The notes under the pieces: generated by a model | What the model saw: the letters and a program-made list of their open reading frames with translations, nothing else | Told to the model about the DNA's origin: nothing | Database searches by the model: none | In this document: positions 30,083-31,774 of the stretch, in pieces | How the letters are laid out: every line of letters starts with the position of its first letter | How positions within the stretch are numbered: the first letter of the stretch is position 1 | Assembly: GCA_965208325.1 (NCBI GenBank) | Contig: OZ242326.1 | Coordinates: 4,608,001 to 4,672,000 of the forward strand | DNA from: Candidatus Poribacteria bacterium | Lineage (GTDB): Bacteria > Poribacteria > WGA-4E > PCPOR2b | Direction of reading: 5' to 3' | DNA: 64,000 nucleotides | Position numbers and translations under genes: made by a program

Positions 30083-31774
30083 TTATTTTTTATAAGCGGA
30101 TCGATCGGTATTTCCCCCGTATTTCATCGCATACACAAATAAATTGACCATAAACCGATGCACATCAGCGGATCGGCGCATCCTTAGCATGGTCCGACTT
30201 GGGATTTCTGCTGTTTCCATCGCACAGAGATAATCCTTCCGATTATAAAGCACTGCGACACGACGTCCAATCGTAATCGCCTTATGGTATTTAAACTTCG
30301 TGACTTTAGGATTATTTTCCGATCCCCAGTACACATCAGACCCATTCGGAGGGATTGATAGCTTATAATAGATGGAATAAATCTCATGGTTGTGTGGGAT
30401 TGACTGAAGCGGATATTCTGGCAGGATTTTTTTCAATTCATCCGCGACACGCGCGGCGAACAAGCCCTTGAACCCGCAATCATCGAAAAATAGCGTCCCA
30501 CCGCGTTCCACGAGGTATTTTCTCATTGCCGACCGTTCTGCAGGAGTAAAGCCCACCATCCACGGCTCGCCCCGCATTAGATTACGCGTTGTGGTCAATT
30601 CTTTATCGTGTCCGGTCATAACAATGATGGGTGCATCAAGGATTCTCGGATCTGTCATTCGCATGGCGCCGCCCTCCAGTTTCATATCCGCACGCAGGCG
30701 AGTATTGTCCGATAACCACCGCATGAAACTCGGCAGCGCCGAGGGATCTTGCCACCAATCTGCTAGTGAATGAATTAGTCGAGTGAAGCGGATATGACCT
30801 TGTATGTCAGCGCCCTCCCCTTCTAATATTGCACCTAACTTATCATCAGGCACCGTCGTGATTTTAGCCAACGGATCGTCTCCAACGCCTCCGGCGCCAG
30901 CGTCGGCTGCCCCGACCGTGCCAACTAGCGAGTCAATACCGCCTGTTCCGCTTCGGCCGCGTCCGTTTATTGCCTCTGTACCTGACCCGCGCCCCTTATC
31001 GGGACCTCGACGCCCGCCGACTGCGGGGGCAATGACCTCCTCGTTGCGCTTGGGTTCGATGTCTGCCACCGTCTTTACAGGACTATCTACAATCGTATCC
31101 GGAACTAATGGGGACACGTCCATCGACACACGGCTTGGGGCAGCCGCGACAGGCCTAGCAACTCGCGGAGCAGAAGACACTCGAACGGGTTGGGAAATCT
31201 GTTGCGCGGGTTGGGGCACCGGTTCAGGCGGTTTGGGCTTGATCTTTTTCAACCGCCTAACCTTCGGCTGCGGCTTCACCATCTCGACCGCAATCGCATC
31301 TTTAATTTCATCCGCGTCGTCCCTTGCAAACAGGAAAATAGCGAAAGCCAAGATAACGTGTGAGACTACAGAGAATACCATCGAATTGCGCACCGTACGA
31401 CGTTTTGGCGTCACTACCGCGATTGCTGTTTCCGCCGCTGGAGACTGTGGCACGTAGGTAGACGCGCTCAGGTAATAGGTCTGTCCGCCGCAATCCACTT
31501 GCATTTGCCCTTCCGGGAGCATGCGGAACTCGGCGCGTTGTCCGGCACGGACTACCTCACTCAGCCGTCTGACGGGCAGAATTACCGTCCCCGGTTGCGT
31601 AACATCCGCGTCAATTGTAATTTTTGTGTCTGAGGTTGAAAGCTCTAGCTTATCGTTCTCAATGCTACGCACACGCACATCGGAGATATACTCTAGGTGA
31701 TTATCTCGCGCCGCCCGCGACTGGAGAGACTTGATTGCTTTTAGAAGGTCCGCTTGTTTGGCTGTGAATTGCAT
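30083..31774 (-). CDS. fusion protein: beta-clamp N-terminal-like domain + TonB-like TM/Pro-rich linker + DUF4159
   Basis: aa 1-105 resemble DnaN domain I; TM aa 132-150 with SxxxH; PKPPEPVPQP linker; C-terminal MTGH, GGTLFFDDCG, HEIYSIYY, KDYLCA. Confidence 0.75.
   Translation of the reverse strand: MQFTAKQADLLKAIKSLQSRAARDNHLEYISDVRVRSIENDKLELSTSDTKITIDADVTQPGTVILPVRRLSEVVRAGQRAEFRMLPEGQMQVDCGGQTYYLSASTYVPQSPAAETAIAVVTPKRRTVRNSMVFSVVSHVILAFAIFLFARDDADEIKDAIAVEMVKPQPKVRRLKKIKPKPPEPVPQPAQQISQPVRVSSAPRVARPVAAAPSRVSMDVSPLVPDTIVDSPVKTVADIEPKRNEEVIAPAVGGRRGPDKGRGSGTEAINGRGRSGTGGIDSLVGTVGAADAGAGGVGDDPLAKITTVPDDKLGAILEGEGADIQGHIRFTRLIHSLADWWQDPSALPSFMRWLSDNTRLRADMKLEGGAMRMTDPRILDAPIIVMTGHDKELTTTRNLMRGEPWMVGFTPAERSAMRKYLVERGGTLFFDDCGFKGLFAARVADELKKILPEYPLQSIPHNHEIYSIYYKLSIPPNGSDVYWGSENNPKVTKFKYHKAITIGRRVAVLYNRKDYLCAMETAEIPSRTMLRMRRSADVHRFMVNLFVYAMKYGGNTDRSAYKK

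Follow-up and report, generated by a model that had tools for sequence, protein, structure and literature searches.

A DnaN domain I homologue fused to a TonB-like membrane anchor and a DUF4159 domain in Candidatus Poribacteria

Within a stretch of 64,000 nucleotides from a sponge-symbiont Candidatus Poribacteria bacterium (GenBank assembly GCA_965208325.1, contig OZ242326.1, positions 4,608,001 to 4,672,000; hereafter the window, whose numbering is used throughout unless another locus is named), an open reading frame (ORF) of 563 codons plus stop with an ATG start (30083..31774, minus strand), judged to be a real gene, encodes a protein in which a homologue of the first of the three domains of the sliding clamp DnaN is joined to a TonB-like transmembrane (TM) anchor and a C-terminal DUF4159 domain. 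This fusion is real and conserved, and its architecture is apparently undescribed: the literature yielded no description of a membrane-anchored single-domain sliding clamp or of a DnaN-like transmembrane protein, in agreement with the initial annotation of the gene, a reading made from the sequence alone. As for its function, the interpretation that we favour, with a probability of roughly 55%, is that of a TonB-like envelope transducer coupled to the proton-motive force (PMF), whose cytoplasmic, clamp-derived domain has been co-opted for interaction or oligomerisation.

The relationship of residues 1-110 (31445..31774, minus strand; hereafter the N-domain) to DnaN domain I emerges from sequence and structure comparisons alike. 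Pfam family PF00712 (DnaN N-terminal domain) aligns with aa 1-81 over positions 1-85 of its 120-position profile (E 3.6e-4); at 21.1 bits, this single-sequence match falls slightly below the cut-off of 24.4 bits, which is exceeded in a six-frame search of the genome (24.8 bits). The NCBIfam model TIGR00663 (dnaN) matches aa 1-90 (E 1.1e-5) with 24.6 bits, short of the 137.65 bits set for a full-length DnaN, and a Pfam scan of the protein found no match at E<=10 to PF02767 or PF02768, the families of clamp domains II and III, as expected of the third of a clamp that the initial annotation had described. A profile of 10 sequences, comprising aa 1-125 of the window protein and the same part of nine homologues, retrieved 44 sequences from the PDB at E<=10; of these, 43 are beta clamps, which align in register from residue 1 to residue 1 with a best E of 2.1e-6. 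Searched against 1.84 billion representatives, the same profile matched 2047 proteins at E<=1e-3, among which proteins of 365-380 aa, aligned from residue 1 to residue 1 and starting at E 1.4e-13, rank after the protein's own family and two giant repeat proteins; eight of these align with the DnaNs of the phylum. The two giants, P0123 (5173 aa, matched in 37 stretches) and P0125 (20 stretches), were set aside as repeat artefacts, the latter being a LapA-repeat adhesin with 33 LapA domains in a domain scan.

The AF2 model of the N-domain (pLDDT 81.4, pTM 0.73) consists of two beta-alpha-beta-beta-beta units, followed by a disordered segment at aa 112-125 (pLDDT <50). Every Foldseek match listed for this model is a bacterial beta clamp (best E 2e-6), and VIA-align superposes it on residues 2..114 of 6djk_A with Z 15.1 and a root-mean-square deviation (rmsd) of 2.3 A over 101 residues; its best 50 matches are all clamps, with domain I as the matched part in 44 and domain III in 6. 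The clamp-fold match predicted for aa 1-105 has thus held up in profile and fold comparisons, and the resemblance of aa 1-110 to DnaN domain I goes far beyond chance and reflects true homology.

Could the fusion nevertheless be an artefact, either of a chimeric assembly or of a true start that lies downstream, near the TM helix? Both possibilities were considered and ruled out. Two contigs of other studies, of 7.5 kb (35 substitutions) and 42.6 kb (47 substitutions), span positions 29700-32300 unbroken and without indels, which settles the continuity that the initial annotation had wished to see verified; full-length homologues of 563-578 aa with 45-95% identity are numerous, 18 of them aligning with the protein from end to end, and the fusion recurs in other genomes. 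Some homologues are named 'DUF4159 domain-containing protein [Candidatus Poribacteria bacterium]' in their sources, and three carry precomputed PF00712 and PF13709 assignments. The downstream start is excluded by the same homologues, by selection on the N-domain (see below) and by conservation of the ATG codon and of the ribosome-binding site, read from the sequence as a Shine-Dalgarno-like GAAGGAAA at 31781..31788 (minus strand), 6 nt upstream of the ATG. In a third strain, whose contig ceases to match the window 27 nt into the gene, the unmatched contig end has an ATG codon again at the same place (by eye, on the opposite strand). The stretch is also present in sponge metagenomes (24 runs, none of them RNA among those listed).

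Beyond the N-domain, a low-confidence tether (aa 111-130; 31385..31444, minus strand) ends in the basic patch PKRRTVRN and leads into the one TM helix (aa 131-150; 31325..31384, minus strand). The single hydrophobic peak, at aa 132-150, is flanked by four Lys+Arg and one Asp+Glu on its N-side and by two Lys+Arg and six Asp+Glu on its C-side; by the positive-inside rule, these flanks therefore predict an N-in, C-out topology with a periplasmic head, which is consistent with the orientation proposed earlier. The helix carries the motif S135-x3-H139, both residues of which are invariant across the 18 full-length homologues; among 121 stored homologues the motif reads SxxxH in 83, AxxxH in 29 and TxxxH in 1, the remaining 8 being mostly N-terminally truncated entries. 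TonB and TolA dock on ExbB/ExbD or TolQ/R through a Ser-x3-His motif, and the two bona fide TonB proteins of the genome have SxxxH as well. The near-universal histidine, together with the same motif in the genome's own TonBs, argues for motor coupling of the core of the protein. The predicted periplasmic linker (aa 151-328; 30791..31324, minus strand) has an acidic start, then a Pro/Lys-rich and finally a Gly-rich part: aa 166-200, with 26% Pro and 26% Lys+Arg, form a proline-rich spacer of the TonB/TolA type, and aa 262-305 contain 30% Gly. The NCBIfam GltJ model matches TM helix and linker weakly (aa 105-230, E 0.023), and the Pfam scan gave no match at E<=10 to TonB_C (PF03544) or to TolA domain III.

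In the place of such a domain stands DUF4159 (PF13709; aa 329-550; 30125..30790, minus strand), matched over all 202 profile positions (1-202) with E 3.8e-28 and 98.8 bits against a threshold of 25.9. The C-terminal 271 residues have a confident AF2 fold (pTM 0.82) of the flavodoxin-like, class-I glutamine-amidotransferase-like type, for which the sole strong structural match is the uncharacterised Hoch_4089 of Haliangium ochraceum (PDB 4i66; Foldseek E 1.7e-9; VIA Z 19.1, rmsd 2.5 A over 188 residues, 23% identity). Despite this shared fold, 4i66 is a 200-residue chain that has neither anchor nor clamp domain, and its entry title gives no function. The next structural matches, at Z 5-8, are class-I glutamine-amidotransferase/ThuA-like folds and the N-terminal domain of IFT52; a fold of the von Willebrand factor A (vWA) type does not occur among the best 50 VIA matches, and phmmer returned 0 matches to PDB sequences. 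Domain, TM and composition data thereby bear out the whole architecture proposed in the initial annotation, from clamp domain I through basic patch, SxxxH helix and Pro/Lys- and Gly-rich linker to DUF4159. In the literature on DUF4159, only the Pfam 2016 database paper mentions the family, and no experimental study was found.

How widespread is the fusion, and how old? A search with the N-domain profile over 176 genomes of the phylum found matches of at least 157 bits, in frames of 564-607 aa, at 11 loci in ten genomes (one, G035, having two copies), besides two divergent full-length fusions with 39% identity (G057 and G058) and one that is interrupted by a contig end (G062). The fusion is thus present in at least 13 of the 176 genomes, across three families of one order, which answers the question of its recurrence raised by the initial annotation; all other N-domain matches listed have the length of DnaN. 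A disrupted copy was also found (G113; L059, G113:C159, 7392-8572), in which a 191-aa ORF corresponds to the N-domain with an insertion, followed by a frame break; the remainder matches aa 154-365 only, and a phage-integrase-family gene is close by. One genus, g7, has no fusion in its 20 genomes, of which 18 show a DnaN-level match only and 2 none, and the orthologues of this genus lie in stop-to-stop frames of 445-466 aa.

In a tree, a branch supported at 97/93 divides the 13 fusion N-domains from the other sequences, which points to a single origin of the fusion. A tree of the last 300 residues places 13 fusion and 26 non-fusion forms interleaved in one clade, separated at 100/100 from three paralogues of the window's own genome; P0014, a protein of 451 aa that has no N-domain, is nested within the clade of the window's genus, and the starred branches require at least two changes between fusion and non-fusion. 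The simplest history suggested by these trees is that of one ancient fusion followed by several losses. The clamp domain is accordingly an accessory part that was lost repeatedly and is missing from the orthologues of many related genera, and the TonB-like anchor with DUF4159 is the conserved core. The N-domain is nonetheless under purifying selection, if loosely: among four orthologues at genus level, dN/dS is 0.16-0.38 for aa 1-110 in all six pairs and 0.025-0.065 for the DUF4159 domain, the N-domain evolving 5-10 times faster than the head.

Relatives of clamps turned up elsewhere, too. The dnaN gene itself appears to have expanded in family f4 of the phylum, many genomes of which contain 2-5 DnaN-length matches each, frequently arranged in tandem (G098 has three consecutive ones, G098:C1:1251838-1254506). 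In a search for viral relatives of the N-domain, none of 125 pattern matches was confirmed by tblastn. Matches to the N-domain model at E 1e-4 to 1e-5 came from single-domain clamp-like phage ORFs in BFVD, A0A6J5L0N7 (123 aa) and A0A6G8RAZ0 (150 aa), and from ESM Atlas clusters of 112-124 aa, mostly viral, with a score of 0.95; all of these are unverified leads. The phage ORFs may represent one-domain clamp proteins of a distinct class that has not been studied, or else split clamp genes. They imply that a free-standing clamp unit is not unique, whereas a membrane-anchored one is not found in the literature.

What has the N-domain kept of DnaN, and what has it given up? It is collinear from residue 1 and retains the twice-repeated fold, but it is one domain instead of three, is tethered to the membrane and lacks the conserved loops. 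In an alignment with 17 DnaN domain I sequences the fusion N-domains are collinear, and their last strand, the dimer interface in clamps, is in register ('VDCGGQTYYLSA' in the fusion protein versus 'IACAQGTYKMIG' in the genome's own DnaN). Across 19 DnaNs, T47, D48 and L49 never vary and P28 and I29 hardly do; the 13 fusion N-domains, by contrast, either lack the T47-D48-L49 loop or have other residues in its place, and the proline of the LPIL motif is gone. The basic residues of helix 2, which presumably form interface salt bridges in the E. coli clamp, vary from PVRRLS in the window protein to PILWFS, QVEQLN, PLGQLT or SLEQLG in other members, and the position aligned with R24, which we take to contact DNA in E. 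coli DnaN, is not conserved. With pI values of 4.8-9.2 the N-domains are close to neutral and have no helix face that is consistently basic, whereas domain I of the phylum's DnaNs is acidic (pI 4.4-4.9). The genuine dnaN of the genome, of 367 codons, adjoins dnaA about 1.5 Mb from the fusion gene.

For the core of the protein, the genome offers several comparisons. It has eight DUF4159 loci, of which three are nearly identical genes some 500 aa long, and five other DUF4159 proteins share a short basic N-terminus, a TM helix, a Pro-rich linker and the DUF4159 head, four of the five with SxxxH. Another DUF4159 protein encoded in the window, of 229 aa (6414-7103, plus strand; 201 bits), has a signal-peptide-like N-terminus, which fits the periplasmic location predicted for the DUF4159 head. 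The genome's single ExbB-ExbD-ExbD cluster (L075, G000:C1:2822000-2838000, 5600-11368) has no adjoining TonB or DUF4159 gene, and there is also a TolQ/TolA-like locus. The 357-aa ExbB of this cluster has an N-terminal CarboxypepD_reg-like domain, and the 1095-aa protein preceding the cluster has no Pfam match. The start of the second fusion copy in G035, which is 79% identical (L053, G035:C1:3030000-3046000, 6874-9446), is overlapped by 4 bp by a bona fide TonB gene (TonB_C, 289 aa); among the small ORFs beside this copy no ExbD- or ExbB-like gene was seen, Pfam finding only a TRL-like protein and a weak, sub-threshold ZrgA match.

It is therefore in the TonB/TolA-type force transducers that we see the probable model for this inner-membrane protein, in which an N-in TM helix with Ser-x3-His would be followed by a long Pro/Lys- and Gly-rich periplasmic tether and then by a DUF4159 head that takes the place of the TonB C-terminal domain. 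The core family, expanded in the phylum, is most likely powered by the single ExbB-ExbD-ExbD motor of the genome. Along one line of orthologues, DnaN domain I was added once, as a fused copy, to the cytoplasmic end, and it has since diverged, with loss of the DnaN-specific motifs. The clamp domain is now most likely an accessory cytoplasmic protein-protein module, which may serve for self-association through exposed beta-sheet edges or for docking of a partner, by analogy with the cytoplasmic domains of GltJ. Several observations weigh against this interpretation. Neither Pfam nor NCBIfam gives a significant TonB_C, TonB_N or GltJ model match; exbB or exbD adjoins the gene neither in the window nor in the 13 contexts examined, and motor coupling hence rests on the motif and on analogy. 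P0014-P0016, the three closest proteins lacking the N-domain, could be gene-calling artefacts. Finally, in three genomes the gene has a DNA-damage neighbour, namely DinB/Pol IV in divergent orientation (G018), an SRAP (YedK-like) peptidase in convergent orientation (G063) and the clustered homologue of the latter (G061) (L051 9800-10918; L054 6491-7174; L056 9031-9699), which weakly hints at a DNA-related role and may be a chance association.

These neighbours, one of which, DinB, is a clamp client, would suit the idea that the N-domain, as domain I does in DnaN, engages domain III of either a single DnaN subunit or an opened ring, holding or sequestering the clamp at the membrane and linking the envelope or the PMF to replication or repair. 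So would the in-register homology up to the interface strand and the place of the phylum's own DnaNs among the best-scoring clamps (65-75 bits with the N-domain profile; in the global library the highest-scoring clamp reaches 67 bits). We regard such a tether or cap for DnaN as unlikely, however, given that the helix-2 basic pair is not conserved, that the DnaN-invariant loop has disappeared, that the N-domain evolves so much faster than the head and has been dropped in many lineages, that synteny with dnaN is lacking, and that domains II and III, between which the peptide-binding cleft of the clamp sits, are both missing from the fusion protein. A more specific variant, in which the N-domain would act as a functional mimic of DnaN domain I and pair with domain III of clamp monomers or of rings opened by the clamp loader, keeping the clamp parked or titrated at the inner membrane by a protein mechanically coupled to a proton-driven envelope machine, seems rather improbable. 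For the connection with DnaN and replication drawn in the initial annotation no evidence was found, the DnaN hallmarks, evolutionary constancy and conserved context all being wanting; the architecture, topology and one-third clamp that it described stand, and its second suggestion, a repurposed oligomerisation fold, fits better. Nor is a self-assembling membrane clamp, in which six single domains would close into a ring or open arc on DNA, at all probable. As modelled, the N-domain amounts to one full repeat unit of the clamp whose two sheet edges are free, and the phage ORFs and ESM Atlas clusters are leads to further one-domain clamps, but the variable R24-equivalent position and the near-neutral pI speak against DNA binding of this kind, and the tether of about 20 residues to the TM helix makes encirclement of DNA awkward.

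Is the N-domain perhaps doing nothing at all? Its repeated loss, its fast evolution and the disrupted copy near an integrase gene would all be natural in a non-functional remnant of a partial dnaN duplication, yet we consider decay very doubtful: dN/dS indicates constraint in every genus-level pair, a confident fold is kept across members only 39% identical, and start codon and ribosome-binding site are conserved. A different proposal, that of a transmembrane signaller of the anti-sigma or receptor type, leaves out the ExbBD motor and has the periplasmic DUF4159 domain sense a ligand while the clamp-like domain holds or releases a cytoplasmic regulator. A cytoplasmic domain, one TM helix, a disordered linker and a periplasmic globular domain are indeed the generic plan of a single-pass signaller, no motor gene is adjacent, and upstream of the fusion gene one genome (G029) encodes a protein of 739 aa that contains sigma-70 regions 2 and 4. 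This neighbour occurs in only 1 of the 13 contexts, however, and the His/Ser motif of the TM helix is kept family-wide, including in members with almost no cytoplasmic part, which argues for an intramembrane partner and not for cytoplasmic signalling; a signalling module is therefore a doubtful alternative to the motor-coupled transducer.

Among known systems, the motor-coupled transducer reading finds parallels at several levels. With TonB and TolA the protein shares the N-in single TM helix, Ser-x3-His and a Pro/Lys-rich periplasmic spacer, but it differs in having a DUF4159 head and no TonB_C, a folded cytoplasmic extension of 130 aa and no adjoining exbBD. Motor-driven force transducers that are not TonBs, a functionally uncharacterised class with an SHLS-motif TM helix, a Pro-rich and disordered linker and a head that adopts the vWA fold, have been described in the PVC group, their genes lying downstream of a TPR gene, one tolQ-like gene and two that are tolR-like (Williams-Jones et al., Mol Biol Evol 2025, PMC12204202). 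They resemble our protein in the His-motif helix, the disordered linker and the globular non-TonB head, whereas the latter here matches 4i66 and class-I amidotransferase-like folds, and the TPR-tolQ-tolR-tolR synteny does not occur at the gene; in the parts of that paper drawn on here, a cytoplasmic clamp domain is not described, and its supplements may list DUF4159-type members. The fusion protein is a variation on this theme of TonB-like transducers with non-TonB heads. For the clamp domain as a cytoplasmic interaction module, the closest analogy is probably GltJ (AgmX) of the Myxococcus Agl-Glt gliding machine, whose cytoplasmic domains bind cytoplasmic partners (PMC11135422). In both proteins a structured N-terminal region in the cytoplasm precedes a single TM helix, beyond which come a flexible stretch and a globular domain in the periplasm; GltJ, however, has a zinc ribbon and a GYF domain on the cytoplasmic side and TonB-C as its head, and no homology was seen beyond the low-complexity linker.

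Directly downstream of the gene in the window lies rpsL-rpsG-fusA (the str operon); two terminator-like hairpins, read from the sequence, directly follow the stop codon (30020..30060, minus strand), and a strong promoter-like site with 11/12 matches precedes rpsL (29916-29945), from which the fusion gene appears to be its own transcription unit. Synteny with the str operon is limited to the window's genus (3 of 12 full-length copies in other genomes), and a functional link to the operon was rejected on these grounds and on account of the signals between the genes; across genera, no neighbour is conserved in the 13 contexts examined. Upstream, positions 31854-32445 (minus strand) hold a pseudogene with a remnant 73-aa DnaJ-like ORF (32224-32445; PF00226, E 6.5e-5): the alignment of a 548-aa DnaJ+TPR protein from a same-genus genome with the window is split between two frames and reaches down to 31854, and relatives carry ORFs of 276-608 aa at this position. 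Two giant proteins follow on the minus strand, a 1198-aa LVIVD-repeat protein (32457-36053) and a 1407-aa reprolysin-like protein with LRR and Big_1 domains (39469-43692), both with FlgD_ig/CHU_C-like C-terminal domains of the type used as type IX secretion system (T9SS) sorting signals.

What, then, is the significance of placing part of a replication protein at this site? A third of a sliding clamp, as the fusion indicates, can be detached and maintained by selection in a setting other than replication proteins, here at the cytoplasmic end of a TonB-like protein. There it supplies a cytoplasmic 'handle' for the DUF4159-headed transducers, which have been little studied and are abundant in the phylum. 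If the clamp domain were to bind DnaN, this would amount to a new kind of link between membrane and replisome, connecting the energy state of the envelope with replication or repair. If, instead, it is an oligomerisation or docking module, it would provide a defined bait for the intracellular partners of proton-motor-coupled envelope machines.

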